Shown one piece after another: positions 1,413-21,537 of a DNA stretch of 25,108 bases. Made by a program: the position numbers and the translations under genes. Within the stretch, counting starts at the first letter, position 1. Every line of letters starts with the position of its first letter. The DNA is taken from IMG/VR virus record IMGVR_UViG_2778261181_000003; one strand, written 5' to 3'. Under the pieces are notes generated by a model, which made no database searches, had not been told where the DNA came from, and saw only the letters and a list, made by a program, of their open reading frames with translations. This stretch comes from a virus. Taxonomy: Duplodnaviria > Heunggongvirae > Uroviricota > Caudoviricetes.

Positions 1413-1427
1413 AGTTTCCTCCCGGTA

Positions 1428-2084
1428 CTATTTAACATACTTGACTGTTAAACTTATAATTTTACCAATTATTTCAATGTCTTCTATCTTGCATTCGAAG
1501 GCTCTGTTTCCACCCTCGACGAAGATTCTTCCACCGGGTAAACGAGTAATGTCACGGATCGTTATTTCGCCATCAATACTTATTACCCATTTACCATCAC
1601 GTATATCATCAAATTCTTTATCACAAATAAATTCAGAATTGTTATCTGTGATGACAAAAGGTTTTTTAAACGTAGAGGGTAGAAATCCCTTATCAAAAAT
1701 ATAAAAACCGTCTTTCTGCAATGCTCCATCAGACAATAAATATTTTTCTACTTCTATAGTATTTGTATTTGCTGATGCTTGCTTTGAACCATGCCCTGTT
1801 GTTAGCCAATTAAGCGAGGTGCCCGTTTCAAGGGCGCACTGGATTACCCAATCTGCTGGAAAAATATCACGCATATAGCGCGTTGCCATGGTGCTCTTAG
1901 AAACACCTAAATGATCACAGAGAGCCTGACGGGTACCGAACCCATATGCTTCAACTAAACGTTCTATGGCTTTCTTACCGCCGCTATTGAAATCCACAAG
2001 TCCTCCAAAGAAATCCAAAATTCGTTGACAGATTCCAAAAGCGATCTTAAAGTTGAACCAGAAGTGTTCTTTTGGAGCCTTCAC
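1428..2084 (-). CDS. cI: Phage 186 CI-type immunity repressor (HTH DNA-binding N-terminus)
   Basis: Segment IERLVEAYGFGTRQALCDHLGVSKSTMATRY ... CALETGTSLNWLTTGHG resembles the N-terminal HTH region of 186 CI as I recall it; transcribed divergently from apl/cII toward int. True start uncertain: no in-frame ATG near the N-terminus (GTG at 2082-2084, TTG at 2016-2018 or GTG at 1995-1997 are candidates). Confidence 0.75.
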   Translation of the reverse strand: MKAPKEHFWFNFKIAFGICQRILDFFGGLVDFNSGGKKAIERLVEAYGFGTRQALCDHLGVSKSTMATRYMRDIFPADWVIQCALETGTSLNWLTTGHGSKQASANTNTIEVEKYLLSDGALQKDGFYIFDKGFLPSTFKKPFVITDNNSEFICDKEFDDIRDGKWVISIDGEITIRDITRLPGGRIFVEGGNRAFECKIEDIEIIGKIISLTVKYVK

Positions 2085-2142
2085 TACTAATCACGACAAA
2101 CAACGGCTCGCCACAAGCCATATCTAGAAGGAATGTTGCCTT

Positions 2143-2346
2143 ATGACACCTAACATTTCAATTACTCTGAATACACCACATGTCACAATCGAACGTTATA
2201 GCGAACTGACTGGCCTTTCTATTGATACGATTAACGACATGTTGGCTGATGGCCGACTACCTCGTCATCGTCTTCGTAAAGACAAAAAACGTGAAAAGGT
2301 AATGATTAACCTGGCTGCTCTGACTGTTGATGCTTTGTCTGCTTAA
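2143..2346 (+). CDS. apl: Apl/Cox-like excisionase and switch regulator (67 aa)
   Basis: Small basic protein, first gene of the rightward operon divergent from cI and directly upstream of cII, matching the 186 apl position. Confidence 0.65.
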
Positions 2347-2410
2347 TAGACGTCTATTTTCACAATAAGACGCTGAGTTCGATTTTGCGATAAGTTCGGA
2401 GTTGAAAACC

Positions 2411-2920
2411 ATGTTTGATTACCAAGTTTCCAAACATCCACATTTTGATGAAGCCTGTCGTGCATTCGCACTGCGCCACAACCTGGTGCAACTGGCAGAA
2501 CGTGCAGGCATGAATGTGCAGATTCTGCGGAACAAGCTGAACCCAGCTCAACCTCATTTATTAACCGCACCAGAAATCTGGCTGCTTACCGATCTGACTG
2601 AAGATTCAACGCTGGTAGACGGTTTTCTGGCACAGATTCATTGTCTGCCATGTGTACCGATTAATGAGGTGGCAAAAGAGAAACTGCCACATTACGTCAT
2701 GAGTGCAACCGCAGAGATCGGGCGTGTTGCTGCAGGTGCGGTATCTGGCGATGTAAAAACCAGTGCAGGTCGTCGTGATGCCATCAGCAGCATTAACTCT
2801 GTAACACGACTGATGGCACTGGCTGCTGTTTCATTGCAGGCCCGTTTACAGGCTAACCCTGCGATGGCGAGTGCAGTTGATACCGTAACTGGCCTCGGTG
2901 CTTCATTCGGTTTGCTGTGA
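2411..2920 (+). CDS. cII: Phage 186 CII-like lysogeny establishment regulator (169 aa from ATG 2411)
   Basis: Position immediately after apl; length from the first ATG matches the 169 aa I recall for 186 CII; GGAG upstream. Track ORF begins at TTG 2402. Confidence 0.7.
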
Positions 2921-2927
2921 GGTGCTT

Positions 2928-3224
2928 ATGCTGACGAAAGAACCATCATTTGCATCGCTGCTGGTAAAACAAAGCCCGGCAATGCACTACGGTCACGGCT
3001 GGATCATGGGTGAGGATGGTAAACGCTGGCATCCATGTCATTCACAAGATGAATTGCTGTCTGAATTGACCACGAGGAAACGGAGAAAGTCAAAATGTAT
3101 GCAGCGGAAAGTGAAGTGGTTTATCAGTTTCGTTACAGAGGGGAAAGTTATTCAGTACCTGAAGATGATTTGCTCTGTTGTTATCCGTCGTTGTCGGGCG
3201 ATGGCAGTTACTTTTTCACGCTAA
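2928..3224 (+). CDS. Hypothetical early protein (possible fil/dhr-region gene); 3' extent uncertain
   Basis: ATG at 2928 with GAGGTG RBS overlapping the cII stop; N-terminal 55 aa look protein-like, but the 3' third overlaps ORF 3095-3319 in another frame and looks like out-of-frame sequence. Confidence 0.35.
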   Translation: MLTKEPSFASLLVKQSPAMHYGHGWIMGEDGKRWHPCHSQDELLSELTTRKRRKSKCMQRKVKWFISFVTEGKVIQYLKMICSVVIRRCRAMAVTFSR

Positions 3225-4211: not shown

Positions 4212-5065
4212 GCACCATCCTGAAATGGGCGGGAAATAAAACCGCAATTATGTCCGAACTGAAAAAATACCTACCTGCTGGCCCGCGACTGGTTGAACCT
4301 TTCGCGGGTTCCTGTGCTGTGATGATGGAGACGGATTACCCCAGCTATCTGGTTGCGGATATTAATCCTGATTTAATCAACCTCTATAAAAAGATTGCCG
4401 CTGATTGCGAGGCGTTTATATCGCGGACCAGAACTTTGTTTGAGGAAGCAAACAGTGACCTAGCTTATTACAACATAAGGCAGGAGTTTAATTACTCAAC
4501 TGAAATTAATGATTTCATGAAAGCGATATATTTCCTGTATCTCAATCGTCATGGTTACCGTGGGTTATGTCGCTATAACAAGAGCGGGCATTTCAACATT
4601 CCCTACGGTAATTATAAAAATCCGTATTTCCCTGAAAAAGAAATTCGCGCATTTGCAGAAAAAGCCCAGCGGGCAACGTTTATCTGCGCCAGCTTTGATG
4701 AAACGCTGGCGATGTTGAAGGCGGGGGATGTGGTGTATTGCGATCCGCCGTATGACGGCACGTTTTCCGGTTATCACACTGACGGCTTCACTGAAGATGA
4801 CCAGTATCACCTGGCATCCGTTCTTGAATATCGATCATCAGAAGGTCATCCGGTCATTGTTTCTAACAGTGATACATCCCTGATCCGTTCGCTGTATCGC
4901 AATTTCACTCACCACTACATCAAGGCAAAACGCAGCATCGGCGTGTCAGCTGGCGAGAGTAAATCTGCAACAGAAATCATTGCTGTTTCCGGGTCGCGCT
5001 GCTGGATGGGATTTGATCCTTCGCGTGGCGTGGATAGTTCTGCTGTGTACGAGGTGCGTGTATGA
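4208..5065 (+). CDS. dam: DNA adenine methyltransferase, Dam family (N6-adenine MTase)
   Basis: N-terminal LKWAGNK motif (AdoMet binding) and catalytic DPPY motif in the translation; ATG at 4208 overlapping the upstream stop; 3' end overlaps the A gene start. Confidence 0.85.
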
Positions 5066-7476
5066 GTCATGACGATATGAGCAACTCTAGCGGCTTTAAC
5101 GAGGCTGCCGCAGCATTTTCATGGAACGGCCCGAAAAAGGCCATTAACCCTTATCTGGATCCGGCGGAAGTTGCGCCGGAGTCTGCACTTTCAAACCTGA
5201 TCACTCTGTACGCTGCCGATAACGAGCAGGAACAACTGCGCCGCGAGGCACTGAGTGAGCAGGTCTGGGAGCGTTATTTCTTTAATGAATCCCGTGATCC
5301 TGTCCAGCGCGAAATGGAGCAGGATAAGCTCATTAGCCGGGCAAAGCTGGCGCATGAGCAGCAGCGTTTTAACCCGGACATGGTCATTCTGGCAGATGTC
5401 AGCGCCCAGCCTTCTCATATCAGCAAGCCGCTGATGCAACGTATCGAATACTTCAGCAGCCTGGGCAGGCCAAAGGCTTATTCCCGCTATTTGCGTGAGA
5501 CGATTAAGCCATGTCTGGAGCGACTGGATTGTGTACGTGACAGTCAGCTATCTGTTTCTTTCCGTTTTATGGCAAGCCATCAAGGGCTGGAGGGGCTGCT
5601 GATCCTGCCTGAAATGAGCCAGGATCAGGTGAAACGCCTGTCCACCCTGGTAGCAGCGCATATGAGCATGTGTCTTGAGGCCGCTTGTGGTGATTTGTAC
5701 GCCACCGATGACGTTAAGCCAGAAGAAATCCGCAAGACATGGGAAAAGGTGGCTGCGGAAACCCTGCGTCTGGATGTTATCCCGCCTGCGTTTGAGAAAC
5801 TTCGTCGGAAAAGAAACCGCCGCAAACCTGTGCCCTATGAACTCATACCGGGTTCGCTGGCACGTATGCTTTGCGCCGACTGGTGGTATCGAAAATTGTG
5901 GAAGATGCGTTGCGAATGGCGGGAAGAGCAGTTGCGTGCTGTCTGTCTGGTCAGCAAAAAAGCATCTCCCTATGTCAGCTATGAAGCAGTGACGCATAAA
6001 CGTGAGCAGCGCCGCAAGTCGCTGGAGTTTTTCCGTTCTCATGAACTGGTGAACGAAGACGGAGACACGCTGGATATGGAAGATGTGGTAAACGCCAGCA
6101 GCAGCAACCCGGCACATCGCCGCAATGAGATGATGGCCTGCGTTAAAGGTCTGGAGCTTATCGCGGAAATGCGCGGTGACTGCGCCGTTTTCTACACCAT
6201 CACCTGTCCGTCACGTTTCCATTCCACGCTCAATAACGGCAGACCAAACCCGACCTGGACAAATGCGACGGTAAGACAAAGCAGTGATTATCTGGTCGGC
6301 ATGTTTGCTGCATTTCGTAAGGCGATGCACAAAGCCGGATTGCGGTGGTATGGCGTGCGGGTGGCTGAGCCGCATCATGACGGTACTGTGCACTGGCATC
6401 TCATGTGCTTCATGCGTAAAAAAGACCGCCGCGCCATCACTGCATTACTGCGTAAGTTTGCCATCCGTGAAGACCGCGAGGAACTGGGCAATAACACGGG
6501 GCCACGCTTTAAGTCTGAGCTGATTAACCCGCGCAAAGGAACGCCGACAAGCTACATCGCGAAATACATCAGTAAGAACATTGACGGGCGTGGTCTGGCT
6601 GGCGAGATCAGCAAGGAAACGGGTAAATCCCTGCGTGATAACGCTGAATACGTTAATGCCTGGGCGTCTCTGCATCGTGTTCAGCAATTCCGCTTCTTTG
6701 GCATTCCGGGGCGTCAGGCTTACCGTGAACTGCGATTGCTGGCTGGTCAGGCGGCAAGGCAGCAGGGTGACAAAAAAGCAGGTGCGCCGGTACTGGATGA
6801 TCCGCGTCTTGATGCCATTCTGGCTGCTGCTGATGCTGGCTGTTTTGCCACCTACATTATGAAGCAGGGCGGCGTGTTGGTTCCCCGCAAATATCACTTG
6901 ATCAGAACCGCTTATGAAATCAACGAAGAGCCGACCGCCTATGGTGATCACGGTATTCGTATTTATGGCATCTGGTCACCCATTGCAGAGGGCAAGATCT
7001 GCACTCATGCAGTGAAGTGGAAAATGGTTCGTAAGGCCGTTGACGTTCAGGAGGCGGCAGCCGACCAGGGCGCTTGCGCCCCTTGGACTCGTGGCAATAA
7101 CTGTCCCCTTGCTGAAAATTTGTACCAACAAGGGAAAGACAAATCAGCTGATGGAGATACCAGAACGGATATCACCCGTATGGATGACAAGGAGTTGCAC
7201 GATTACCTGCACAGTATGAGCAAAAAAGAGCGCCGGGAACTGGCAGCAAGGTTACGCCTGGTGAAACCGAAACGGCGTAAAGACTACAAACAGCGAATTA
7301 CAGATCATCAGCGACAGCAGCTCGTGTATGAACTGAAGTCCAGGGGATTTGATGGCAGCGAGAAAGAGGTCGATTTACTCCTTCGCGGCGGCAGTATTCC
7401 GTCAGGAGCAGGCCTGCGTATCTTCTATCGGAACCAGCGTTTGCAGGAAGATGATAAGTGGCGGAACCTGTATTAA
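5062..7476 (+). CDS. A: Replication initiation endonuclease A (rolling-circle initiator, P2 gpA-like)
   Basis: 804-aa protein with HUH-type motif ([13 protein letters not shown]) and paired-tyrosine motif ([10 protein letters not shown]) as in the phiX174 A / P2 A superfamily; position after the early genes matches P2/186. Confidence 0.85.
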
Positions 7477-7817: not shown

Positions 7818-7827
7818 GGTGACTTTT

Positions 7828-8061
7828 ATGCGCATTGAAATAATGATCGATAAAGAGCAGAAGATTAGCCAGTCTACCCTGGACGCCCTTGAATCCGAGC
7901 TTTACCGCAATCTGCGCCCCCTGTATCCCAAAACGGTAATTCGTATCCGCAAAGGTAGCTCTAACGGTGTGGAACTGACCGGACTGCAACTGGATGAAGA
8001 AAGAAAACAAGTGATGAAAATTATGCAGAAAGTGTGGGAAGACGACAGCTGGCTGCATTAA
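7828..8061 (+). CDS. DinI-family protein (77 aa)
   Basis: Resembles E. coli DinI in length and pattern (MRIE..., acidic C-terminus ending WEDDSWLH versus DinI ...WESADDWF); GAGGTGA RBS; same operon as the LexA-box promoter. Confidence 0.75.
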   Translation: MRIEIMIDKEQKISQSTLDALESELYRNLRPLYPKTVIRIRKGSSNGVELTGLQLDEERKQVMKIMQKVWEDDSWLH

Positions 8062-8205
8062 GAAACGTTGCCTCCAGGAGGATTCATTCTGATGGGGGCT
8101 AGTTTGGGCAACGAGTGAAACGAGGCGTAAGGTGGGCGGGCATTTTGATAAGTGATCGTCCGCTTTGTGCTAGAAGCGGTCGTTACCGCTTCAGCACTTT
8201 GTTAA

Positions 8206-10065
8206 TTAGTGAGGGCTGGTTATTACGTAGTCGCTCTGGTCATCCTCTCCCAGCCTCTCAGGTATTAAATCGTTGAAGGAAATAGTATTACTCTTAGGTT
8301 TTTCTTCAATTGGAAGTTCAGCTACCCTTAATTTGAGCGGCATGGGGCAGACGATACCACTAAAAATACAGGTTCCTGTAGATAGCGTTGGAATCGACTC
8401 TTCAGTCAGTCGATCTATATATGATACTGATTTTTCAATTGCGTACAGATCATTCTGATTAATAAGGCGATGAATAAAATAATTGTGTGCTTGGGATATG
8501 ATTGTCGACGATATATCATTAGGGCGTTGACTGGAAATTGTGATAAAAACTCCAAATTTTCTCCCCTCCTTTATGATTTCCTCAAAAGTTTCCAGACGAT
8601 AATCTCTCCAACTTTCCGTTTCCCGAAAAGAAGTATTAGACAAAATATTGTGGGCTTCATCTATAATGATGTGCAGTGTAGATTTCTCTGTAGACATTTT
8701 CTTCATATTGTAAGCCCACTTGGCTATCAAAAGAGGAAGCGTTTTTTTCATGGTTATATTAACCATATTTAGATTCACAACCGTGAAATTATGTTCACCC
8801 CAAAAGTCAGACTGTCCGGAAGTATCAAATATTTTGGCTATATCTTTACGGTTAGCACTCATTCTATTTATAACTGGTGAAATATGTTCAGGGTTAGACT
8901 TGTTAGATAAATATTCCTGTATTAACTGTAAGTACATAAAGTCCAACAGTTCTTCAATCATATCAGTTTTAAATGAAAAATTGCTTGCAAGACTGAATAG
9001 ATAGGAGCGCTCAGTATCAGCTTCTGTATTGAAAATACTACCACCCCTCAATTTCCATTTATATGCAGTTGAATGATACTCAAGATCAGATATAAGTTCT
9101 GGGTCATCTTTGAAAATTGGGCTAAGAAACTGATTTATAGTATCGCATTTGGGTTTGTCGCTACTAAAGAGATTTTGTCTGACTTTTTTCTTCAGGATAT
9201 TGCGCATAAACTCAAGAGGATTATCAGCAGTCATCACTTTCTTGCGAAACTCAAGAACTCTCTTCAGGAAAGGTTTCTGTGTTTTGTCTGTTGCATCGGT
9301 TAGAACTGAGAGCATATCATGCTCAAGTAGAACCTCTCTGGGTAGAGGAAGTTTGTCACCATTTGCATGGTGCGTGTTGAGATTATAAACCGTCTTCTCG
9401 TCAGTAATACAGCGTGGGGCAGTATATTCTCCATTAAAGTCGAATAGAATAAATTTGCATCTTTCACTAAAGTGGTTGCCGAGAATATGTTTAACTTGGG
9501 CAATACCTGCTTTGTATAGCGCGGCTAGGGTATTTGACTTTCCGCTGCCTGTATTACCGAAAATGGCAATGTGGGAATTAATAAGACCATTGATTGGTAG
9601 TGCAATTTCAATATCTTCAAGATCTGTACGAGTAAACCTCATTACAGTTTCGTCTGCATCAGCTATCTGATGAACCGTCTGTATCATCTCTTCAGTTACC
9701 ACGAAGACTTCATTGCCGATGAGAGGTAGTTCACGCGAACCACCAATGAAGCAACCAGTACGATCAATGTAACCCGTAAGAGTAGAGGTCAGGTATCGCC
9801 GATATCGCCAGGCATCACTGCCGCTCCCAGCGAGATGTTTTTCCTCAATGATTCGTTCCGCTTCAACCTTGCCGATCAGGCTCATGAAACCTTTTTTGAT
9901 CTCAATGAAGCTACCCACTGATACATTTCTTAGAACTTTTCCCTGATAAAACAAGTCACTGAGATTTTTGTTTTTATCGACCAAAATTGTCACAGCGCGT
10001 CCAGAAACCTCACAGACTTCGCCTATACGGAGCACCGCTTCCTCTTCAGTAAAATGCCTGCTCAT
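8206..10065 (-). CDS. HerA-like ATPase (FtsK/HerA superfamily), partner of SIR2 in a SIR2-HerA anti-phage system
   Basis: Walker A GNTGSGKSNT and Walker B HIIIDEAHNI in the translation; ATG at 10063-10065 overlaps the SIR2 stop (ATGA) with GGGAGG RBS; AT-rich relative to the phage backbone. Confidence 0.8.
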   Translation of the reverse strand: MSRHFTEEEAVLRIGEVCEVSGRAVTILVDKNKNLSDLFYQGKVLRNVSVGSFIEIKKGFMSLIGKVEAERIIEEKHLAGSGSDAWRYRRYLTSTLTGYIDRTGCFIGGSRELPLIGNEVFVVTEEMIQTVHQIADADETVMRFTRTDLEDIEIALPINGLINSHIAIFGNTGSGKSNTLAALYKAGIAQVKHILGNHFSERCKFILFDFNGEYTAPRCITDEKTVYNLNTHHANGDKLPLPREVLLEHDMLSVLTDATDKTQKPFLKRVLEFRKKVMTADNPLEFMRNILKKKVRQNLFSSDKPKCDTINQFLSPIFKDDPELISDLEYHSTAYKWKLRGGSIFNTEADTERSYLFSLASNFSFKTDMIEELLDFMYLQLIQEYLSNKSNPEHISPVINRMSANRKDIAKIFDTSGQSDFWGEHNFTVVNLNMVNITMKKTLPLLIAKWAYNMKKMSTEKSTLHIIIDEAHNILSNTSFRETESWRDYRLETFEEIIKEGRKFGVFITISSQRPNDISSTIISQAHNYFIHRLINQNDLYAIEKSVSYIDRLTEESIPTLSTGTCIFSGIVCPMPLKLRVAELPIEEKPKSNTISFNDLIPERLGEDDQSDYVITSPH

Positions 10066-11105
10066 CTCGAGCCTCCCAGATAGCACGTGATAATGTTATT
10101 CATTACCGGAAAATCAACATTTCTTCCCGGCCGATAAATAATCTCTACGTTTGAGTAATCCCGAAATTTCTCCATAAAGCCGTTAACACTGGCCTCATCG
10201 AAAGCAAAGATCAGTAGCTTCAGGGTGGCGTTGCGCAGGGCTTTTTTAGTTATCGTTTCAATGTGCTCATCAGCAAACGAGAACCCAAAGACAATTAGTA
10301 AAGTTGCTTCTTTATCAAGCTCGTTGGAATAGGTTCTCAGTAAATCATAATAAACGTTCTGTAGTAGAGTCTCTTTAAACTTCTCCTTACGTGGAAGAAT
10401 AAGTGCATGAGCAAGTACCCATCCTTTCATTTCGGCTAGGGTGGGAAAGTCAAGCGGCTTAATATCTGCAATACGATAAATGATTTTCCCTTTAGAATGC
10501 TGCCAAGAGAGCGAACCATGAAGTTTTATAAGGTTAACAGTAGGAAGCTCAACTTTATAATTATACAGATTTCCGGTTGCACTTACAGAATGATTAAAGC
10601 TACCCGCATCAAATTCCGCATCTCCCAAAATACTTGCTCTTCTATTGAATCCATCATTAAAAAGAATATTGTTATTACGTGTGGCAGCTTCTTCGATGAA
10701 TAAATCATAATTAGTTGTAAAAACGTTAATACGCCTCGGAAGTAGGCCAGTTCGGCGGCGGGTCAGTATCTTTTCCAGTGAAGACATAAATGCATCATAA
10801 TTTGCACGGGTACATTCCAAATCGGTGATCACCTGAGGTGCGAAGGGGGTGCCGTAGCCGCGCTTCAACATGCATTCATGAGGTAGCCAAACATCTGACA
10901 AAAAGTCAGCTGCCATCCTTAAGTATTCATCTTCCTGTTCATCATTAATAAGCTGCTGAAGATCCGTTTCGATTGTCCCCAGTACTTTAATCGCTGGGAG
11001 GGATGCACCTGATCCGATGAGAAAGTTAATGTTAGCTGACTGAAATATCCGCTCTAAGTAGTCTCGGTCACTATCGTTACCGTAGTATGCGCGCTTGACT
11101 GCCAT
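10062..11105 (-). CDS. SIR2-domain protein (predicted NADase effector) of a SIR2-HerA anti-phage system
   Basis: Translation shows glycine-rich NAD-binding loop FLIGSGAS, the SIR2 TNYD motif (VFTTNYD) and a downstream KLHGS histidine; ATG at 11103-11105 with AAGGA RBS; immediately upstream of and coupled to the HerA gene. Confidence 0.8.
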   Translation of the reverse strand: MAVKRAYYGNDSDRDYLERIFQSANINFLIGSGASLPAIKVLGTIETDLQQLINDEQEDEYLRMAADFLSDVWLPHECMLKRGYGTPFAPQVITDLECTRANYDAFMSSLEKILTRRRTGLLPRRINVFTTNYDLFIEEAATRNNNILFNDGFNRRASILGDAEFDAGSFNHSVSATGNLYNYKVELPTVNLIKLHGSLSWQHSKGKIIYRIADIKPLDFPTLAEMKGWVLAHALILPRKEKFKETLLQNVYYDLLRTYSNELDKEATLLIVFGFSFADEHIETITKKALRNATLKLLIFAFDEASVNGFMEKFRDYSNVEIIYRPGRNVDFPVMNNIITCYLGGSR

Positions 11106-11529
11106 CTTATCCTTCCACAAAACATTGGATTAGTCTGTAATTTATTTAATCTTAACGCCGAGCTCAATACTTTAACATCACTTCTTCTGGCGATTGCTAT
11201 GAGCCCTTCTTGATAAAAAGTTCGATCGGGAAACTGATCCTTTATGCCACAAGTTTTCTAGCTATCCTCAAAAAATTGGTGTTAAAACTGTGCCAACAAA
11301 GTTGCAAGGTTCGCTTCTCGCTCACAGCGAACTTTCATCTTTGTAAACCCGTATGATTCGCTTTTCAGCAGTCATTCAGATACGGATTTACGCTTCCCTT
11401 GGCAGCGCATGACTATGACGCATGAGATCGCATGATCGTTTGAGGATCGTTTTTGCTGAAGTCAGCCAGAACTGGCGTGCTTTTGCTTATGTCATGCAGG
11501 TGCATGAAAACCACTACATAAAGCGGGCA

Positions 11530-11549
11530 GGCGTGGCGGGGATACGAGC
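11530..11549. other. Candidate cos (cohesive-end) site of the P2/186-type phage
   Basis: GGCGTGGCGGGGATACGAGC: the first 13 nt match the 186 cos overhang as I recall it (GGCGTGGCGGGGAAAGCAT; P2 GGCGAGGCGGGGAAAGCAC). Lies in the non-coding gap between the right-end cargo and the portal side, where cos is expected in a prophage. Confidence 0.4.
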
Positions 11550-11674
11550 GCGCGCTTAAGGATAAATTGAAGTTGATTTAATTTTTCGACATGGATAATC
11601 TTAACTACGTATGATTATTGATAAAAAATAAACATAAACAATTGTAGCGGATCTTAAAACTTATTAGGATTAGT

Positions 11675-12736
11675 ATGCTTAAAACAAATAAGGTATTTAT
11701 TGACACACAAACGTACGTAAAGGCTGGTCTTCATTTTGAGGGGGTAGCATTTAAAGCTTTCCATGAATTATGTGCGAAAGGTGATTTAGTCTTAATTACA
11801 ACTACAGTTGTAGAGAGAGAAGTAAAAGGTAAAATAGAGGAATCAATAAAGGATGCTCTGCAGGCTATAAACACAGTACAAAGAAAAGCTAGGCTTTTGA
11901 ATAGTATTGATAATGGACCGCTCCATGGTTTTTTTCAGCAATTTAACGAACATGAAATTCACGAAGCAGCACAAAAAGTTTTTGATGATTTTTTGAAAGG
12001 ATGTCACGCCAAATTAGCTACAATAGAAGTGATAGATCTTAATGAGGTTTTAGATAAATACTTTGGCAAAGAACCACCATTTGGGCAAAATAAGAAAAAA
12101 AGTGAGTTTCCTGATGCAATCACTTTAGCTGCGGTAGAGCGATTTGTTAATGATGAAGATGTGTATATCATTTCTGAGGATAGTGACTTAAAAAATTATT
12201 GTGATGGTAAAAACAATCTTCATCAAATTGATTCACTTGATAAGTTTCTAGGTGAATACAATACGCATACAAACGAATTAAGTAATAAATTGATGCAGTT
12301 TATCGAAAGCAAACGTGAAGACATAAGAGCGGACGTAATTGCCCAACTCAATGATGCCGATGGATATAACGTTTCAACTTGGGAAGACGCTGAATTGGAT
12401 TCATTTGAAGTCGTCAATATTGATGACTTTGAACCATCAATAATTAAGATTGACAATAATTATTGTCTAGCGACCTTCTCTGTTTCTGTAGATTTTGAAG
12501 TTACTGTTTCTGGTCCAGACTTTAATAATGGGTATTGGGATAGCGAAGATAAAGTAATGATTCCAATGGAGACAACCACACGAACTGAAGTTCAAGAGAT
12601 TAGTTTCGATATTGAAATTGAAGTTATGTATGAAATCGAGGATGGTGAATTAACAGATATCGCATTTGATGTGAATATTGATAAGTTATCCCGAGGGATT
12701 GAGTTCTCTATTGAAGAAAATAATTTTGAATATTAA
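11675..12736 (+). CDS. PIN-like nuclease-domain protein with acidic C-terminal domain of unknown function (353 aa); candidate defence or abortive-infection gene
   Basis: N-terminal half has a PIN-type acidic-residue pattern (KVFIDTQTY, VVEREV, EFPDAITLAAVERF, VYIISEDSDL); C-terminal about 170 aa is D/E-rich and beta-like; very AT-rich gene with its own 550-bp upstream region and a strong downstream terminator. Confidence 0.7.
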   Translation: MLKTNKVFIDTQTYVKAGLHFEGVAFKAFHELCAKGDLVLITTTVVEREVKGKIEESIKDALQAINTVQRKARLLNSIDNGPLHGFFQQFNEHEIHEAAQKVFDDFLKGCHAKLATIEVIDLNEVLDKYFGKEPPFGQNKKKSEFPDAITLAAVERFVNDEDVYIISEDSDLKNYCDGKNNLHQIDSLDKFLGEYNTHTNELSNKLMQFIESKREDIRADVIAQLNDADGYNVSTWEDAELDSFEVVNIDDFEPSIIKIDNNYCLATFSVSVDFEVTVSGPDFNNGYWDSEDKVMIPMETTTRTEVQEISFDIEIEVMYEIEDGELTDIAFDVNIDKLSRGIEFSIEENNFEY

Positions 12737-12745
12737 TTCGTTCAT

Positions 12746-12777
12746 AACGGCATCATTGTGATGCCGTTGGGTTTTAT
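12746..12777 (+). terminator. Rho-independent terminator after the PIN-like gene
   Basis: Perfect 10-bp stem AACGGCATCA / TGATGCCGTT with 3-nt loop, followed by GGGTTTTAT; overlaps the stop codon of the convergent portal gene. Confidence 0.6.
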
Positions 12778-13799
12778 AATGTATATATTTCAAAATTTAT
12801 AATTTCATGACCAAGCCATCTGTTTATTTCCATGAATCTTTTTTGAAGTGGTAATAGTTCATTTCTTACGAAGACGCAGCTCGCCTTCTCCACATCACCA
12901 AAACCCCCAACATTATTCGGCAAAATTCCCATCATCTGAGGCGGTACGCGGTGTGCCGCCATCATGTCATCACGGCTGACGTTCTTGATGTTCAGAAATT
13001 CATCCTTCGCCGCGACTTCTGACAACGGGATGATCTGAAGCCCGTCCTTTTTGCCGTTAGGCGAGTACATAAACAGGTTGCGGAAGTTGCCAGGGCCTTT
13101 GGCGCTTTTCATCGCATTGCGGAGGTTGTTCACATCCTCCTGGTTCTGCGCGGCATCGGTCATGTACATGATGAAGCCTGCATGGCTGCCGTTAATGTAA
13201 TACTTCCGGCGGAACAGCGTGGCGGACTCGTTGAGCAGGGCTGACGGAATGGCAGAAAGATAACCTGGTAGGCCGTAGATCTCCTGGTTGATGTCAGGTT
13301 CCATCAGATGAAAAATGCTGCCTTTCGTGAACTGATACGGCTGGGTTGTCATACCGTATTGCACAAACCAGTAGGTATCCAGGTCTAACCCGCGTCGGGT
13401 GTATTTTGCCAGAGCAGGCTCAAGGGCGATAACTTCACCGAAGCGGTTCGTGCGTTTCTCCAGGTAGGCGTTACCAAATACCAGATAGTCCTGCACAAAA
13501 CGTGAAAAAGCCTGCTGGCTGAGCAGCGGGTGAGGGATGTAGGTACTGGTCAGAATGTTGCATTTCACCGCAATTGGTGAGCTGTGATGCACGGCGGCGC
13601 GGAAGGTTCGTGCCAGTCCGTCAAAGCTGACGGGCGGCTCATACCAGCGATCCATCTGTACGCATTCCACATAGTCCAGCAGTTCACGGCGGTCCAGAAC
13701 AGGAACGGGATCGCCAAAGCTGAATGCTTCGGCTGAAGTTTGGCTTTTATGCTTGAGCTGATTCGTCGCCGCAGCGCGGTTTTTCTTACTCTTTCCCAT
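12774..13799 (-). CDS. Q: Portal protein (P2 gpQ-like)
   Basis: 341 aa from ATG 13797-13799, which overlaps the terminase stop (ATGA); size and position match P2 Q, transcribed leftward after P toward cos. Confidence 0.85.
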   Translation of the reverse strand: MGKSKKNRAAATNQLKHKSQTSAEAFSFGDPVPVLDRRELLDYVECVQMDRWYEPPVSFDGLARTFRAAVHHSSPIAVKCNILTSTYIPHPLLSQQAFSRFVQDYLVFGNAYLEKRTNRFGEVIALEPALAKYTRRGLDLDTYWFVQYGMTTQPYQFTKGSIFHLMEPDINQEIYGLPGYLSAIPSALLNESATLFRRKYYINGSHAGFIMYMTDAAQNQEDVNNLRNAMKSAKGPGNFRNLFMYSPNGKKDGLQIIPLSEVAAKDEFLNIKNVSRDDMMAAHRVPPQMMGILPNNVGGFGDVEKASCVFVRNELLPLQKRFMEINRWLGHEIINFEIYTL

Positions 13800-15565
13800 C
13801 AAAAAATCTCCACAATATTGCTGGTATTGGCGGACTCGCCCTGCAGCGGTTCATTAAACAGTGCGTGCATTGTTGCCCAGGCCAGATCGGCGTGGCTGGC
13901 TTCTTCGCTGCGGCTGGCTTCATAGGTCGGGCGGTTGCCGCTGGCAGTGGTGGCGCGACGGATTGCCATAAAGGACTGCGCTATGTCGGTGTGCCCTGCG
14001 TCAAACTCCAGGCGGCGGTGGCTAATAATGTCGTAGGCCTTGAGTACCAGGGCGTTTTTAACGTTGGGGTTGTAGACAAACTCCCGGACGGCAGGAAAAA
14101 ACGCTTTCACGTTCTCGTAAACCCCGTGACCGACGCCGGTTGAGTCGATACCGATGTATGTCACGTTGTACTGTTCGGTCAGTTTTTTGATGGCGTCAGC
14201 CTGGGCGCGGAAGTCCATCCCGCGCCACTGGTGACGTTCAAGAATGCGAAACTTACCGCCTGGCACGGCTGGCGGTGCCACCACCACGCATCCGGCGCTG
14301 TCGCCGTTCTGCGTACCTTTTGCCGGGTCATAACCGATCCACACTTCGCGCCAGCCAAACGGGCGCAGGGCCAGTGCATGAAAGTCGCTCCAGACTTCCC
14401 AACTGTCCACCATGCACGCCTGCAGCTCGCTGAGCGGGAACACGGACGCGAGATCGTCCACAAACTCGCACATCAGCAGGTTCTGGTATTCGTCCGGGCT
14501 GTACTCCATGCGCAACTGATCGAGGTCGAAAAGGTTACATCCGCCGCGCACTGCATCTTCCACGGTGACTATCTGGCGGTATTGCCCGTCTGCGCACAGC
14601 AGGCCGGGGGCCAGATTGCTGTGGGACAGGTCGATGTCCACCTTATCGGCTTTGTTGCGCCCACGGTTGAACAGCGCACCAGACCAGAACGGATAAGCAC
14701 TGTGTGTCAGGCTGGATGGCGTGGAAAAATAGGTTTGTCGCCATTTTTTGTGAATAGCCATACCGGAAGCCACTTTGCGCAGCTCCTGGAATTTCGGTAT
14801 CCAGAAATATTCATCCAGATACAGGTTGCCGTGATAACTCTGGGCAGTGCGGGCATTGGTGCCGAGGAAGTAAAGCGTGGCCCCGTTAGGAAGCACCATC
14901 GGATCGCCTTTCAGCTCCACCTCGACTTCTTTGGCGAAGTCGATGATGTATTGCTTAAAGACGTGAGCCTGTGCCTTACTGGCAGAAAGGAAAATCTGGT
15001 TACGTCCGGTAAGCAGGGCGTCAATCAGGGCTTCACGGGCAAAGTAAAAGGTCGCGCCGATCTGGCGTGACTTCAGCAGATTACGGATGCGGTTGGTTTT
15101 TCCAGCTTCCCACCAGTGGCGCTGGTAGTTGAACATGGAGGAATGGAAGATTTCTTCCAGCTTCTCAATCTGTTCATCGGTGAAAACATTCTTTTCCGGC
15201 TGACGGCGCGGCCCTTTGTTGCGGTTGGCGACGTTAGGGTTTAAGTCGGCTTCGTTGCCGCCATTGTTAAACTTGCCGATCCGCGCGTGGCGCTCCGACT
15301 GGCGTGCCAGCAGGTCAATTTCTTTGAAATCTTTCCCTTCTTTGTGCTCCTTCATAATGAGCTGGCAATAGCGTGCGGCGGTGGTGAGCTGCATCTGATC
15401 CAGCGGCCCATAGTCACCCCACTTGTCGCGTTTTTTCCAGCTGTGAACGGTTGCAACTTTCTCGCCCAGCATTTCAGCAATGCGGGCTACGCGGTATCCC
15501 TGAAAGTACAGCAGCATGGCCTGCCGACGGGGATCGAGATCTGCGGGTGTCAGTGTGGTGTTCAT
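13799..15565 (-). CDS. P: Terminase large (ATPase) subunit (P2 gpP-like)
   Basis: 588 aa (P2 P is about 590); ATG at 15563-15565; divergent from the O gene as in P2. Confidence 0.9.
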   Translation of the reverse strand: MNTTLTPADLDPRRQAMLLYFQGYRVARIAEMLGEKVATVHSWKKRDKWGDYGPLDQMQLTTAARYCQLIMKEHKEGKDFKEIDLLARQSERHARIGKFNNGGNEADLNPNVANRNKGPRRQPEKNVFTDEQIEKLEEIFHSSMFNYQRHWWEAGKTNRIRNLLKSRQIGATFYFAREALIDALLTGRNQIFLSASKAQAHVFKQYIIDFAKEVEVELKGDPMVLPNGATLYFLGTNARTAQSYHGNLYLDEYFWIPKFQELRKVASGMAIHKKWRQTYFSTPSSLTHSAYPFWSGALFNRGRNKADKVDIDLSHSNLAPGLLCADGQYRQIVTVEDAVRGGCNLFDLDQLRMEYSPDEYQNLLMCEFVDDLASVFPLSELQACMVDSWEVWSDFHALALRPFGWREVWIGYDPAKGTQNGDSAGCVVVAPPAVPGGKFRILERHQWRGMDFRAQADAIKKLTEQYNVTYIGIDSTGVGHGVYENVKAFFPAVREFVYNPNVKNALVLKAYDIISHRRLEFDAGHTDIAQSFMAIRRATTASGNRPTYEASRSEEASHADLAWATMHALFNEPLQGESANTSNIVEIF

Positions 15566-15611
15566 GGCACAAACCTACAGTCTTGAATGAAGGCTTTCCC
15601 CGCCTGCGGTT

Positions 15612-15629
15612 TGTGTGGTTGTCGGTACA
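15612..15629. promoter_or_regulatory. Candidate late-activator (Ogr/B-type) binding site TGT-N12-ACA in the P/O divergent late promoter region
   Basis: TGTgtggttgtcggtACA lies about 80 bp upstream of the O start codon in the 142-bp P-O intergenic region; P2-family late promoters carry a TGT-N12-ACA element near -55. Confidence 0.4.
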
Positions 15630-15707
15630 AATACCGCGCATTGTTTCACTGCCCTCATCACCGCAACCATAAGGCTCCAGTAAGTTTTTTCTAACGGAGC
15701 ACGGCTC

Positions 15708-16541
15708 ATGACAGTGAAAGCAAAGCGTTTTCGCATCGGGGTGGAAGGTGCCACCACCGACGGACGCGAAATCCAGCGTGAATGGCTGGAACAGATGGCA
15801 GCCAGCTACAACCCCGCAGTGTATACCGCGCTGATTAACCTTGAGCACATCAAGTCTTATCTGCCGGACAGCACCTTTAACCGCTACGGCAAGGTGACGG
15901 CGCTGTTTGCTGAAGAAATCACGGAAGGCCCGCTGGCAGGCAAGATGGCGCTGTATGCCGACGTTGAGCCAACGGAGTCCCTGGTGGAGCTGGTGAAAAA
16001 AGGCCAGAAATTATTCACCTCTATGGAAGTCAGCCCGAAGTTCGCTGATACGGGCAAAGCCTACCTGGTTGGCCTGGCTGCCACTGATGATCCAGCCAGT
16101 CTGGGTACGGAAATGCTGACATTCAGCGCCAGTGCAGCCCATAACCCGTTGGCAAACCGCAAGCAGAATCCCGCCAATCTTTTTACCGCTGCAGAGGAAA
16201 CGGTGATCGAACTGGAAGAAGTCCAGGATGACAAACCATCCCTGTTTGCCCGCGTCACGGCGCTGTTCACCAAAAAAGAGCAGTCAGACGATGCCCGGTT
16301 CTCTGATGTGCATAAGGCCGTGGAGCTGGTCGCCACTGAGCAGCAGAACCTGAGCACACGCACCGAAAAATCCCTGGCTGAACAGGAAGAACGCCTGTCT
16401 GAGCTGGAGACTGCTCTGCAGGAGCAGCAAACCGCCTTTAAAGAACTGGTGAATAAGCTGAGTCATGAAGACAGCCGCCAGGACTACCGCCAGCGTGCAA
16501 CAGGCGGTAACGCCCCCGCTGACACTCTGACCAATTGCTGA
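15708..16541 (+). CDS. O: Capsid scaffolding protein (P2 gpO-like)
   Basis: 277 aa (P2 O about 284), first gene of the rightward late operon, immediately followed by the major capsid gene. Confidence 0.85.
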   Translation: MTVKAKRFRIGVEGATTDGREIQREWLEQMAASYNPAVYTALINLEHIKSYLPDSTFNRYGKVTALFAEEITEGPLAGKMALYADVEPTESLVELVKKGQKLFTSMEVSPKFADTGKAYLVGLAATDDPASLGTEMLTFSASAAHNPLANRKQNPANLFTAAEETVIELEEVQDDKPSLFARVTALFTKKEQSDDARFSDVHKAVELVATEQQNLSTRTEKSLAEQEERLSELETALQEQQTAFKELVNKLSHEDSRQDYRQRATGGNAPADTLTNC

Positions 16542-16557
16542 TGGAGCACAAAACCTG

Positions 16558-17616
16558 ATGAAGAAGAATACCCGCTTTGCTTTTAACGCTTACCTGCAGC
16601 AGCTGGCGCGTCTGAACGGTGTGGCAGTTGAAGAACTGTCCAGCAAGTTCACCGTGGAGCCGTCTGTACAGCAGACGCTGGAAGACCAGATCCAGCAGTC
16701 CGCCGCTTTCCTGACGCTGATTAACGTCACGCCAGTGACTGAGCAGTCCGGTCAGCTGCTGGGCTTGGGTGTTGGTAGCACCATTGCCGGAACCACTGAC
16801 ACCACCGCGAAAGAGCGTGAACCTGTCGATCCTACGCTGATGGTCGATGTGGAATACAAATGCGAGCAGACCAACTTTGACACGGTACTGACCTACGCGA
16901 AGCTGGACCTGTGGGCGAAGTTTCAGGATTTCCAGGTGCGTATCCGTGACGCCATCGTGAAACGTCAGGCACTGGACCGCATCATGATCGGCTTTAACGG
17001 CGTGAAGCGTGCGAAAACCTCCAACCGTAGCGAAAACCCGCTGCTGCAGGATGTGAATAAAGGCTGGCTGCAGAAAATCCGTGAGGATGCACCGGATCAC
17101 GTCATGGGCAGCACCACCACGGGTGGTGAAACCACACCGGGTGCGGTGAAAGTCGGGAAAGGTGGCGAATATGCCAACCTGGACGCCGTAGTGATGGATG
17201 CCGTCAATGAGCTTATCGACGTGGTTTACCAGGACGATGACGATCTGGTGGTGATTTGCGGGCGTGAACTGCTGTCTGACAAGTATTTCCCGCTGGTCAA
17301 CAAAGAGCAGGAAAACAGTGAAAAACTGGCTGCCGATATGATCATCAGTCAGAAACGCATGGGGGGCCTGCAGGCCGTGCGTGCGCCGTTCTTCCCGCCG
17401 AATGCGCTGCTGATCACCCGTCTGGATAACCTGTCCATCTACTGGCAGGAAGATACCCGCCGCCGTTCAGTTATTGACAACCCGAAACGTGACCGGATTG
17501 AAAACTTTGAATCTGTTAACGAAGCCTATGTGGTTGAGGACTACCGCTGCGCCGCACTGGTGGAAAACATCCAGATTGGCGATTTCAGCACCGCTGCAGC
17601 AGAAACCGGAGCGTAA
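16558..17616 (+). CDS. N: Major capsid protein (P2 gpN-like)
   Basis: 352 aa (P2 N about 357); N-terminus ...TRFAFNAYLQQLARLNGV resembles my recollection of P2 N; conserved O-N-M order. Confidence 0.9.
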   Translation: MKKNTRFAFNAYLQQLARLNGVAVEELSSKFTVEPSVQQTLEDQIQQSAAFLTLINVTPVTEQSGQLLGLGVGSTIAGTTDTTAKEREPVDPTLMVDVEYKCEQTNFDTVLTYAKLDLWAKFQDFQVRIRDAIVKRQALDRIMIGFNGVKRAKTSNRSENPLLQDVNKGWLQKIREDAPDHVMGSTTTGGETTPGAVKVGKGGEYANLDAVVMDAVNELIDVVYQDDDDLVVICGRELLSDKYFPLVNKEQENSEKLAADMIISQKRMGGLQAVRAPFFPPNALLITRLDNLSIYWQEDTRRRSVIDNPKRDRIENFESVNEAYVVEDYRCAALVENIQIGDFSTAAAETGA

Positions 17617-17619
17617 TTC

Positions 17620-18270
17620 ATGAGCCTGAGTCCCGCACGGCAGCATCGCCTGCGCGTTCAGGCTGAACAGGCCGCCCGCGAGGGCGGCAGTGTTCGCCAC
17701 GCGTCGGGCTATGACCTGATGCTGCTGCAACTGGCGGAAGACCGCCGCCGTCTCAAGGGCGTTCAGTCCACGGTCAAAAAAGCGGAAATCAAGGTGGAGC
17801 TGCTGCCGAAGTACGCCGCCTGGGCGGAGGGTGTCCTGGCTGCCGGAGGCGCGCAACAGGATGACGTGCTGATGTACGTGATGCTGTGGCGCATTGATGC
17901 CGGAGATTATGCCGGGGCGCTGGAGATCGGGCGTCATGCCCTGCGTCATGGCTGGGTGATGCCGCTGGGTAACCGCAACGTGCAGACCGTGCTGGCAGAG
18001 GAAATGGCAGACGCAGCCCAGAGCGCAATGCTTGCCGCCACCGGCTTTGATGCCGATCTGTTGCTGCAGACGCTGGAGCTGACAGACGGTCTGGATATGC
18101 CGGACCAGTCACGGGCACGTCTGCATAAAGCGATTGGCGCGGTCCTGAGTGAAAGCAATCCGGCGTCCGCCCTTAATCATCTCAACCATGCGTTACAGCT
18201 CGATCCCCGCTGTGGCGTGAAAAAAGACAAACAGCAGCTGGAGCGCAGACTGCGCAATGACAGCCGCTGA
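17620..18270 (+). CDS. M: Terminase small (endonuclease) subunit (P2 gpM-like)
   Basis: 216 aa, directly after N as in P2. Confidence 0.8.
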   Translation: MSLSPARQHRLRVQAEQAAREGGSVRHASGYDLMLLQLAEDRRRLKGVQSTVKKAEIKVELLPKYAAWAEGVLAAGGAQQDDVLMYVMLWRIDAGDYAGALEIGRHALRHGWVMPLGNRNVQTVLAEEMADAAQSAMLAATGFDADLLLQTLELTDGLDMPDQSRARLHKAIGAVLSESNPASALNHLNHALQLDPRCGVKKDKQQLERRLRNDSR

Positions 18271-18365
18271 CAGAACGTGCCCCCGCGCACGGGCGGCACG
18301 GGGTGGCGAAAGGCACTGCCACATCAAAATCCCGTCCACCGCCCTCTATTTCAGGAGAAAGCAGC

Positions 18366-18830
18366 ATGAAGTTTGTTGCGCCAGAACAGGCACCGGAACA
18401 GGCGGAAATCATCAGAAATACGCCGTTCTGGCCTGATGTGGACCTGTCGGAGTTTCGCAGTGTGATGCGCACTGACGGCACGGTGACGCAGCCGCGTTTA
18501 AAGCAGGTTGCGCTGTCGGCAATTTCGGAGGTCAACGCAGAGCTGTATGAGTTTCGCAGGCGCCAGCAGGTGCTGGGGTATGCCTCGCTGGCAGAGGTTC
18601 CGGCGGAACAGCTGGACGGCAAAAGTGAGCGCATTCAGCACTATTTCAACGCGGTTTACTGTTGGGCACGCGCCATGCTCAACGAACGATACCAGGACTA
18701 TGACACCACGGCATCCGGTGTGAAGCGGGGCGAGGAACTGGCAGAAGCCAGCGGTGATTTGTGGCGTGACGCCCGCTGGGCCATCAGCCGGGTACAGGAC
18801 GCGCCGCACTGCACAGTGGAGCTTATCTGA
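18366..18830 (+). CDS. L: Head completion/stabilisation protein (P2 gpL-like)
   Basis: ATG at 18366 with AGGAGAAAG RBS (the track ORF starts upstream at a non-ATG codon); 154 aa; stop overlaps the X start. Confidence 0.8.
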   Translation: MKFVAPEQAPEQAEIIRNTPFWPDVDLSEFRSVMRTDGTVTQPRLKQVALSAISEVNAELYEFRRRQQVLGYASLAEVPAEQLDGKSERIQHYFNAVYCWARAMLNERYQDYDTTASGVKRGEELAEASGDLWRDARWAISRVQDAPHCTVELI

Positions 18831-19033
18831 TGAAAGTGCGTGCGCATCAGTATGACACGGTGGACGCGCTTTGCTGGCGTCATTACGGGCGCACGCAGGG
18901 TGTCACGGAGCAGGTACTGAAGGCAAATCCGGGGCTTGCCGAATACGGCCCCTTTTTACCTCACGGGCTGCAGGTGGAGCTGCCGGACATTCCGACTACC
19001 ACCACTGTGCAGACCGTCCAGCTATGGGACTGA
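18830..19033 (+). CDS. X: Tail protein X (P2 gpX-like, 67 aa)
   Basis: 67 aa, identical in length to P2 X and in the conserved position between L and the lysis genes. Confidence 0.8.
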   Translation: MKVRAHQYDTVDALCWRHYGRTQGVTEQVLKANPGLAEYGPFLPHGLQVELPDIPTTTTVQTVQLWD

Positions 19034-19036
19034 ATT

Positions 19037-19252
19037 ATGACGCTTGAGCGAATCAGCGCCTTTATCACGTATTGCATCGCCGTCGTGCTGGCCTGGCTGG
19101 GCGATTTGTCCATCAAGGATGCCTCAACGCTGGGCGGCCTGATGATCGGTGTGCTGATGCTGGCTATCAACTGGTACTACAAACACAAAGCCTACCAGCT
19201 TCTGCGCGACGGGCAGATCTCGCGGGAGGACTATGAATCCATCAATCGTTAA
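19037..19252 (+). CDS. Holin (71 aa, two predicted transmembrane helices; pinholin-like)
   Basis: Two hydrophobic segments (ISAFITYCIAVVLAWLG and LGGLMIGVLMLAINWYY) followed by a charged C-terminus; immediately upstream of and overlapping the endolysin gene. Confidence 0.65.
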   Translation: MTLERISAFITYCIAVVLAWLGDLSIKDASTLGGLMIGVLMLAINWYYKHKAYQLLRDGQISREDYESINR

Positions 19253-19745
19253 ACGCTGCCTTGTCGGGGCCGTGCTGGCTATTGCTGCCACGCTGCCGGG
19301 GTTTCAGCAGCTTCACACCTCCGTGGAGGGGCTGAAACTGATCGCCGATTACGAAGGCTGTCGTCTGCAGCCGTATCAGTGCAGCGCGGGTGTCTGGACC
19401 GACGGCATTGGTAATACGTCGGGCGTCATTCCCGGCAAAACTATTACGGAACGACAGGCAGCAGAAGGGCTGATCTCCAACGTACTACGTGTGGAGCGGG
19501 CGCTGGAAAGGTGTGTGAAGCAACAGCCGCCGCAGAAGGTGTATGACGCTACGGTGTCGTTTGCCTTCAACGTGGGGACGGGCAATGCCTGTAGTTCCAC
19601 GCTGGTGAAATTGCTCAATCAGCGGCGCTGGGCGGATGCGTGCCGACAGTTGCCGCGCTGGGTTTATGTCAAAGGTGTGTTTAATCAGGGGCTGGATAAC
19701 CGCCGTGCGCGGGAGATGGCCTGGTGTTTACAGGGAGCAAACTGA
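19233..19745 (+). CDS. Endolysin, T4-lysozyme-like (GH24) with SAR-like N-terminal segment
   Basis: Catalytic-region pattern EGLKLIADYEG ... GVWTDGIGNT typical of lambda R / T4 E type lysozymes; N-terminal weakly hydrophobic Gly/Ala-rich stretch CLVGAVLAIAATLPG. Confidence 0.8.
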   Translation: MNPSIVKRCLVGAVLAIAATLPGFQQLHTSVEGLKLIADYEGCRLQPYQCSAGVWTDGIGNTSGVIPGKTITERQAAEGLISNVLRVERALERCVKQQPPQKVYDATVSFAFNVGTGNACSSTLVKLLNQRRWADACRQLPRWVYVKGVFNQGLDNRRAREMAWCLQGAN

Positions 19746-19746
19746 A

Positions 19747-21515: not shown

Positions 21516-21519
21516 TCTT

Positions 21520-21537
21520 TGTATCAGCACTGATACA
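21520..21537. promoter_or_regulatory. Candidate late-activator binding site TGT-N12-ACA upstream of V (near-perfect dyad TGTATCAGCACTGATACA)
   Basis: Inverted repeat TGTATCAG / CTGATACA centred about 55 bp upstream of the V start codon, in the 68-bp S-V intergenic gap. Confidence 0.45.

Follow-up and report, generated by a model that had tools for sequence, protein, structure and literature searches.

The stretch of DNA analysed here, 25,108 nucleotides (nt) of the IMG/VR virus record IMGVR_UViG_2778261181_000003 (hereafter the window), contains an AT-rich region at 8062-12773. We assign this region, with a probability of roughly 0.8, to the cos-proximal accessory (defence) hotspot of a P2-like Escherichia coli prophage (Fels-2/SEN8-like, Peduoviridae), in which two exchangeable slots are arranged around a conserved core of the cohesive-end site (cos). 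The left slot holds a SIR2-HerA pair and the right slot a single PIN_12 gene. The region lies between gpA and the portal gene gpQ of a P2-like prophage and adjoins a cos recognised by homology to P2, 186 and SEN8, and its content was hypervariable between near-identical flanks. The locus is largely expected, as it combines a known hotspot, one known system and one catalogued gene, and the additions are modest refinements, not a new kind of locus: cos splits the hotspot into two separately exchanged, sharp-bordered slots, the portal-side slot is common, and the right slot has a polarity.

The cos core and the two cargo slots

The G+C content (GC) of 8062-12773 was 0.391, compared with 0.563 for 13000-25108 and 0.531 for gpA. 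The GC at third codon positions (GC3) was 0.365 for the HerA gene, 0.397 for the SIR2 gene and 0.251 for the PIN gene, against 0.57-0.70 for the backbone genes encoding gpA, portal, terminase and capsid. In the right cargo, all 300-base-pair (bp) windows had a GC under that of the lowest backbone window. Both the GC and the GC3 placed the cargo below the backbone, with no uniformity of composition across the region, and the cargo is foreign in composition relative to the backbone. The initial annotation had described a single AT-rich island, with a sharp drop in GC from the DinI-like gene to the portal stop codon. The drop held, at 39% GC against 56% in the structural genes, but the single island resolved into two cassettes split by the cos core. 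The low-GC tract was interrupted by two stretches of conserved backbone, 8062-8179 (GC 0.51) and 11403-11555 (GC 0.53), and its AT-rich parts were confined to approximately 8183-11336 and 11556-12776. The first of the conserved stretches is a spacer after the DinI-like gene, in which relatives with other left cargo lost homology at 8071-8073 or 8177-8179 in blastn. The GC within the right cassette was 0.235 over 11556-11674 and 0.337 in the PIN gene.

The predicted 19-nt cohesive end, GGCGTGGCGGGGATACGAG at 11530-11548 (plus strand), occurred only once in the window, where chance would give 0.02 matches. It agreed at 19 of 19 positions with the cos that is annotated as putative in Salmonella phage SEN8, and the identity spanned 26 nt, including the 7 nt that follow. 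The SEN8 record terminates at window position 11529 and restarts at 11530, its last 123 nt aligning to 11407-11529; blastn accordingly returned the segments 11407-11529 and 11530-11555, and homology to SEN8 on the right side of cos ended at 11555. The annotated cohesive ends of P2 (GGCGAGGCGGGGAAAGCAC) and 186 (GGCGTGGCGGGGAAAGCAT), which lie at distances of 187 bp (P2) and 196 bp (186) from the portal stop, were matched at 14 of 19 positions (P2 cosL/cosR) and 15 of 19 positions (186), and the left arm, ...TGCATGAAAACC...AAGCGGGCA/ (the slash marking the predicted cut), was conserved alongside. The site had the pattern of a cos, namely a 19-nt GC-rich sequence of the form GGCG(A/T)GGCGGGGA... 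between conserved flanks, and lay a short way downstream of the portal gene, as the P2 and 186 sites do. The call of cos at 11530 in the initial annotation was thus borne out by the uniqueness of the motif in the window, its identity to the SEN8 site, its homology to the P2 and 186 sites and its position. A repeat finder applied to the cos region returned only the GCGCGC palindrome at 11543-11558.

The conservation of the site was surveyed in portal-containing loci, taking one genome per species, which yielded 53 Enterobacterales prophages having gpA, a portal gene and the cos motif. The context ...TGCATGAAAACC.....AAGCGGGCA/GGCGTGGCGGGG.TACGAGCGCGCGC was almost invariant across these prophages. 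The column-conservation profile was high from approximately -127 to +26 of the cut and fell abruptly to background on both sides, which defines in the window a conserved cos core of approximately 153 bp at 11403-11555 (reaching about 127 bp leftwards and 26 bp rightwards from the cut), presumed to be the terminase recognition and cleavage region. The core region was common to approximately 1300 of 5426 complete E. coli genomes. As about 150 bp around cos were near-invariant while the flanks were unrelated, the conservation of the core inside unrelated DNA indicates strong purifying selection on a cis-acting site. The consensus of the 53 prophages also contained, in the left arm (11403-11529), the short conserved symmetric elements GCATGATC...GATCG, CGCCAGnACTGGCG and CATGCAnnTGCATG, which are candidate binding sites for the terminase small subunit.

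Terminase is predicted to cleave at 11530/11548, which at a P2/186-type site would produce 5' overhangs of 19 nt. If the cos call were wrong or the site did not function, GGCGTGGCGGGG would be only a relic motif, and with packaging initiated elsewhere the cargos would lie away from the genome ends. Such a reading draws on the facts that the virion-end position for this prophage comes from homology only, that the last six bases of the 19-mer differ from those of P2 and 186, and that many relatives are degraded. A relic is nevertheless very unlikely, considering that the site and the approximately 150 bp around it were near-invariant across 53 species within unrelated flanks, that the motif had a single match in the window, and that it occupies the same place as in P2 and 186 with respect to the portal and terminase genes. 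With a functional cos, the terminase cut would leave the PIN gene within approximately 1.2 kb of the Q-proximal (left) virion end and SIR2-HerA within approximately 3.4 kb of the other.

The survey also gave the occupancy of the two slots. The cos-to-portal interval ranged from 175 to 3514 bp with a median of 1690 bp, and exceeded 700 bp, taken as an occupied slot, in 43 of the 53 prophages, while the A-side (left) slot was occupied in 27. Both slots were filled in 19 prophages, only the right one in 24, only the left one in 8, and neither in 2. The mean GC was 0.371 for the right cargo, 0.433 for the left cargo and 0.572 for the backbone. Among the open reading frames (ORFs) of at least 90 amino acids (aa) in the right slots of the 43 prophages (loci L019-L082), 79 of 83 pointed away from cos and converged with the portal gene; the left-slot ORFs were divided between the plus strand (20) and the minus strand (19). 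One possible reason for the polarity of the right slot is that it shields the cargo from read-through of the late operon; another is that it keeps transcription from crossing cos. Since the right-slot proteins in other species included recognised defence families (PD-T4-9 (CmdTAC), bSEFIR, AbiLi, AriA (PARIS), Old-like, TIR, KAP NTPase and AbiC), the cos-to-portal slot is, judging from its predicted content, a defence slot.

The alignment of the window to related prophages placed the cargo breakpoints at the edges of the cos core. Homology to a prophage with SIR2-HerA and AIPR (L001) extended to 11576 and resumed at 12777 in blastn, and prophages sharing only SIR2-HerA were homologous up to 11555-11576 and again from 12777. 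In prophages combining the PIN gene with another left cargo (L002, L003, L011, L012 and L014-L018), homology ended at 7818, 8071-8073 or 8177-8179 and resumed at 11306-11317 or 11399-11407. An identical 353-aa PIN protein was paired with at least eight different left cargos, which were SIR2-HerA, ASCH with an insertion sequence (IS) and Mrr, KAP NTPase, DUF6694, DUF8087, an HNH endonuclease and several hypothetical pairs. The SIR2-HerA cassette, at a nucleotide identity of at least 99.8%, was paired with five different right cargos, namely AIPR, the retron Ec67 reverse transcriptase (RT), a pair of a hypothetical and a HIRAN protein, a 469-aa hypothetical protein, and PIN. A spread sample of the approximately 1300 E. 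coli genomes with the cos core contained dozens of different hotspot cargos.

The many partners on the opposite side, the breakpoints at the cos edges and the differing GC3 (0.25 for PIN and 0.37-0.40 for the SIR2-HerA genes) argue for independent acquisition of the two cargos. The initial annotation had proposed two independent insertions; the independence was retained, while the events themselves are better described as replacement by recombination than as insertion. Site-specific insertion at the cargo borders was rejected, as the outer breakpoints varied (7818, 8071 and 8179 on the left; 12777, 12801 and 12879 on the right) and carried no repeat or att-like motif. A different history would be that SIR2-HerA, cos and PIN were gained as one block from another P2-like phage, so that the split reflects only the position of cos. 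The exact SIR2-HerA plus PIN arrangement did recur in several other E. coli assemblies (L009, L010, L013 and similar ones), meaning that the pair now co-travels in one lineage. Acquisition as a single composite island is nonetheless improbable in view of the occurrence of each cargo at 99-100% identity with many other partners across cos, the breakpoints at the cos-core edges and the difference in GC3. Moreover, none of the 5426 complete E. coli genomes held both cargos, while many held one.

Cargo replacement in the two slots would proceed by recombination anchored in the flanking conserved DNA, namely DinI/gpA, the cos core and the portal gene, and the double-strand ends generated at cos may stimulate it, as Rousset et al. 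proposed. Some of the prophages with the identical PIN protein (L009, L013, L015 and L017) were deleted ones, in which the portal, terminase, capsid or most structural genes were missing and the segment from gpA to cos was kept together with the cargo. In such prophages the defence cargo seems to persist after the phage itself has decayed.

The SIR2-HerA and PIN_12 cassettes

The left-slot cassette spans 8183-11336 on the minus strand. Its extent was defined by a copy of 91% identity, covering exactly 8183-11336, in an island of E. coli 873.10 without a P2 backbone (H44/L101, NZ_CP061754.1, 1193522-1203674), and this copy marks the segment as a mobile cassette that moves as a unit. Its neighbours in E. 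coli 873.10 were genes for a restriction endonuclease, a TPR protein, an ankyrin-repeat protein and DUF6387. Thirteen complete E. coli genomes contained copies with an identity of at least 99.8%.

The cassette encodes a SIR2-family putative NADase of 347 aa (10062-11105, minus strand; PADLOC PDLC04080, 6e-211) and a HerA-type ATPase/helicase of 619 aa (8206-10065, minus strand; PADLOC PDLC04097, 6e-267). Both PADLOC matches were full length, covering profile positions 1-347 of 347 for SIR2 and 3-616 of 618 for HerA, and confirmed the SIR2-HerA pair that had been placed on one side of cos; the Pfam matches were SIR2_2 (1.4e-12) and DUF87 (3.9e-19). The translations contained TTNYD and KLHGS in SIR2 and GNTGSGKS (Walker A) and IIIDEAH (Walker B) in HerA, which by analogy would represent the intact catalytic Asn/His of SIR2 and the Walker motifs of HerA. 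The two genes have an operon layout: they are adjacent on the minus strand with SIR2 preceding HerA, and the start codon of HerA (ATG) and the stop codon of SIR2 lie in a 4-nt overlap. The overlap (ATGA) suggests translational coupling. The mechanically defined HerA ORF started at GTG 10086 (626 aa), and the RefSeq relatives use ATG 10065. For SIR2, ATG 11105, preceded by AAGGA, is more likely to be the start codon than TTG 11120. Inspection by eye gave only a weak promoter possibility, TTGAGC-17-TAAATT on the minus strand at approximately 11140-11170.

SIR2-HerA as an anti-phage system was reportedly described by Gao et al. in 2020. In such systems, a HerA-scaffolded SIR2 assembly usually depletes NAD+ on infection, leading to abortive infection. 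The window pair shares with the characterised systems (PDB 8yhx, 8j4u/8su9 and 8wld) the order of SIR2 upstream of HerA and the overlapping stop and start codons, in addition to the full-length PADLOC matches and the SIR2 N/H and HerA Walker A/B motifs. It differs in being divergent: the SIR2 protein matched the solved SIR2-HerA systems at 1e-11 to 3e-21 (3e-21 for PDB 8yhx), and HerA matched the complexes 8wiv, 8yho and 8j4u at 1e-27 to 2e-20. This distant relation, together with the unmet NCBIfam equivalog cut-offs given below, indicates that the window pair is a divergent SIR2-HerA subtype. The operon would be transcribed leftwards, away from cos, and in a lysogen it would protect by NAD+ depletion through HerA-assembled SIR2, in analogy with the characterised systems.

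The right-slot cassette, delimited by the homology breakpoints and GC at 11556-12776 (plus strand), consists of a promoter region, the PIN_12 gene and a terminator. A promoter-like site, TCGACA-18-TATGAT, with 10 of 12 consensus matches was located at 11586-11615 (plus strand), 60 bp upstream of the PIN ATG; it is a consensus match only, as such sites were not enriched over shuffled sequences (16 found, 13.5 expected). A terminator-like hairpin with an 11-bp stem followed by TTTTAT was found by the scan at 12745-12769 (plus strand), after the PIN stop codon and left of the resumption of the backbone at 12777. The right slot would therefore hold a self-contained gene with a candidate promoter and terminator, that reads rightwards from cos, toward the oppositely oriented portal gene.

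The gene at 11675-12736 (plus strand) encodes a PIN_12/DUF4935 protein of 353 aa (Pfam PF16289, 1.5e-25; 91.0 bits against a cut-off of 32, residues 7-171), in agreement with the PIN-like gene previously noted on the other side of cos. The protein has an N-terminal VapC-like PIN nuclease domain, long helical inserts and, at the C terminus (residues of approximately 230-344), a conserved domain of about 120 aa that is beta-rich, was assigned to no fold family and had no convincing structural match; the PDB sequence search returned nothing significant for the protein. The residues D10, E49, D147, D169 and D171 were invariant in the family along with several C-terminal ones, and the PIN fold of the window protein retains the conserved acidic metal-binding residues. 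Relatives were widespread outside P2 phages as single full-length genes of approximately 355 aa in Vibrio, Pseudomonas, Aeromonas, Pantoea and others. The PIN gene did not conform to a VapBC toxin-antitoxin pair, as no co-oriented ORF of at least 30 aa lay beside the PIN gene within 11556-12776 and a VapB-type antitoxin gene was thus lacking. Unlike VapC-type PIN toxins, the window protein is monocistronic and has the helical inserts and an extra C-terminal beta domain.

DUF4935 has been described as PIN-like, monocistronic and of unknown function (Matelska et al. 2017). Cosus (Brc24), a PIN12-domain protein of an integron cassette, blocks T7, and its T12A, D14A and D96A mutants showed a drop from complete to approximately 100-fold protection; homologues were reported in Vibrio and Escherichia marmotae (bioRxiv 10.1101/2024.07.02.601719). 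The window protein resembles Cosus as a single-gene protein with a PIN_12-type domain, Vibrio relatives and retained catalytic acidic residues, but the mutated residues of Cosus (D6, T12, D14, E42, D96 and others) fitted it by no single offset. The comparison was made by mutant residue numbering only, and orthology to Brc24 was not established by it. PIN_12 is also listed among the hotspot arrangements, with no testing reported, and the PIN_12 and KAP_NTPase+PIN_12 arrangements appear in Table S5A of that study (Rousset et al. 2022, PMC9122126).

The PIN_12 gene is a plausible candidate for a single-gene defence, and its product is probably a stand-alone infection-activated nuclease, the C-terminal domain of which would act as a sensor or regulator. 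The protein might instead serve the phage, as an anti-defence factor or by processing RNA for the late operon that converges with it, or act as a prophage-stabilising toxin. Its orientation toward the portal/terminase operon would suit such roles, the hotspot is known to carry partition systems and toxins as well (Rousset et al. 2022), and an addiction-like function fits the retention of PIN in deleted, non-inducible prophages equally as well as a host-beneficial one. We consider a role other than defence less likely than not, although it is the most substantial of the alternatives weighed here: recognised defence genes fill the same slot in other species, Cosus blocks T7 and is weakened by the three substitutions, the family is common outside P2 phages and hence independent of P2 biology, and no antitoxin-like partner ORF was found.

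Several points weigh against the assignment of the region as a two-slot defence hotspot around a functional cos. The SEN8 cos is itself annotated merely as 'putative', and the cut position and the expression of the cargos are predictions from sequence. Several carriers of the SIR2-HerA plus PIN pair are structurally deleted, and packaging may be gone in many hosts. The SIR2 and HerA proteins missed the NCBIfam equivalog cut-offs, scoring 99.8 against 500 and 138.7 against 800, respectively, so the mechanism is carried over a large distance from the biochemically studied systems, and the consensus scan gave no sigma-70-like promoter for the operon. The PIN protein had no match in PADLOC, NCBIfam or PHROGs, which also favours a function other than defence, and its proposed defence role is one of guilt by association.

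The prophage backbone and its other variable interval

The ORF map and domain scans gave a P2-type gene order across the window, comprising int, CI, gpA, DinI, portal, terminase and capsid. An integrase gene (1-1188) and a CI-type repressor gene (1428-2084), both on the minus strand, are followed by the gene for the replication endonuclease gpA (5062-7476; Pfam Phage_GPA, 3.5e-128), a 62-aa ORF, and the DinI-like gene (7828-8061, plus strand; Pfam DinI, 1.3e-22), which is the last conserved backbone gene left of the hotspot. A 77-aa DinI-like protein is annotated at the equivalent place in RefSeq relatives. The first conserved backbone gene on the right is the portal gene gpQ (12774-13802, minus strand; Pfam Phage_portal, 1.2e-16), with its stop codon at 12774-12776. 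The portal was 100% identical to those of the PIN-carrying E. coli prophages. The large terminase gene gpP lies at 13799-15565 (minus strand), and beyond it the scaffold, capsid, small terminase and tail genes were found. The nearest phage records were Klebsiella, Salmonella and Escherichia Peduoviridae of the Fels-2/SEN8 type, and in E. coli chromosomes the near-identical prophages adjoin ybjL/ybjM/grxA.

The prophages with the SIR2-HerA plus PIN pair (L009, L010 and L013) were 98-99% identical to the window from 3342 on and only 89% identical over the repressor/cox region (1391-3059). The immunity region in these prophages has been swapped independently of the cargo. The interval between integrase and repressor (1001-2100) was also AT-rich (GC 0.35) and in the window held only a 63-aa YdcA-like ORF (1221-1412). 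In the relatives L012, L014, L017 and L018, the corresponding interval (1-2300) carried genes for an OLD-like ATPase/TOPRIM, a KAP NTPase, SNIPE/T5orf172 or DUF4747. This interval is a minor int-proximal hotspot that was previously noted in a 2026 NAR paper.

Relation to the published hotspot

The P2 old/tin locus was reportedly described by Odegrip in 2006. The window region resembles it in its site beside cos, flanked by the replication endonuclease gene (with DinI) on one side and the portal gene on the other, in its hypervariable, AT-rich and defence-enriched cargo, and in the transcription of the left cargo away from cos, as for P2 old-tin. It differs from P2 and 186 in that these carry cargo on the A-proximal side only, with cos 187-196 bp from the portal stop, whereas the window, like 43 of the 53 surveyed relatives, has a portal-side cargo as well. 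A gpA-gpQ hotspot adjacent to cos, generalising the old/tin locus, was described by Rousset et al. (2022, PMC9122126), who also speculated that the cohesive ends made at cos supply recombination substrates, and was confirmed by Vassallo et al. (2022, PMC9519451). Very rapid swapping of defence loci at the P2 hotspot was subsequently reported in a study that likewise confirmed the hotspot, with the recombination mechanism described as still to be elucidated (Moura de Sousa et al. 2026, PMC13586616). These three papers treat gpA-gpQ as one locus with no split at cos, and make no mention of the missing portal-side slot in P2 and 186 or of a polarity bias.

A broader reading, which we put forward tentatively and hold to be somewhat doubtful as a whole, is that the cos core divides the hotspot into two slots with separate mechanisms, the portal-side one being absent from P2 and 186, the more often filled of the two in Fels-2-like prophages and strict in polarity, and that PIN_12 is a widespread, still uncatalogued nuclease that brings about abortive infection as a single gene and senses infection through its C-terminal beta domain. 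The PIN_12 gene would be a cheap candidate for a new single-gene defence. The two-slot layout bears on the recombination mechanism at P2 hotspots, for which two features would provide simple testable constraints: the abrupt ends of conservation at -127 and +26 of cos, and the right-slot polarity. With this layout, one small prophage would carry two unrelated immunity modules that are swappable one at a time.

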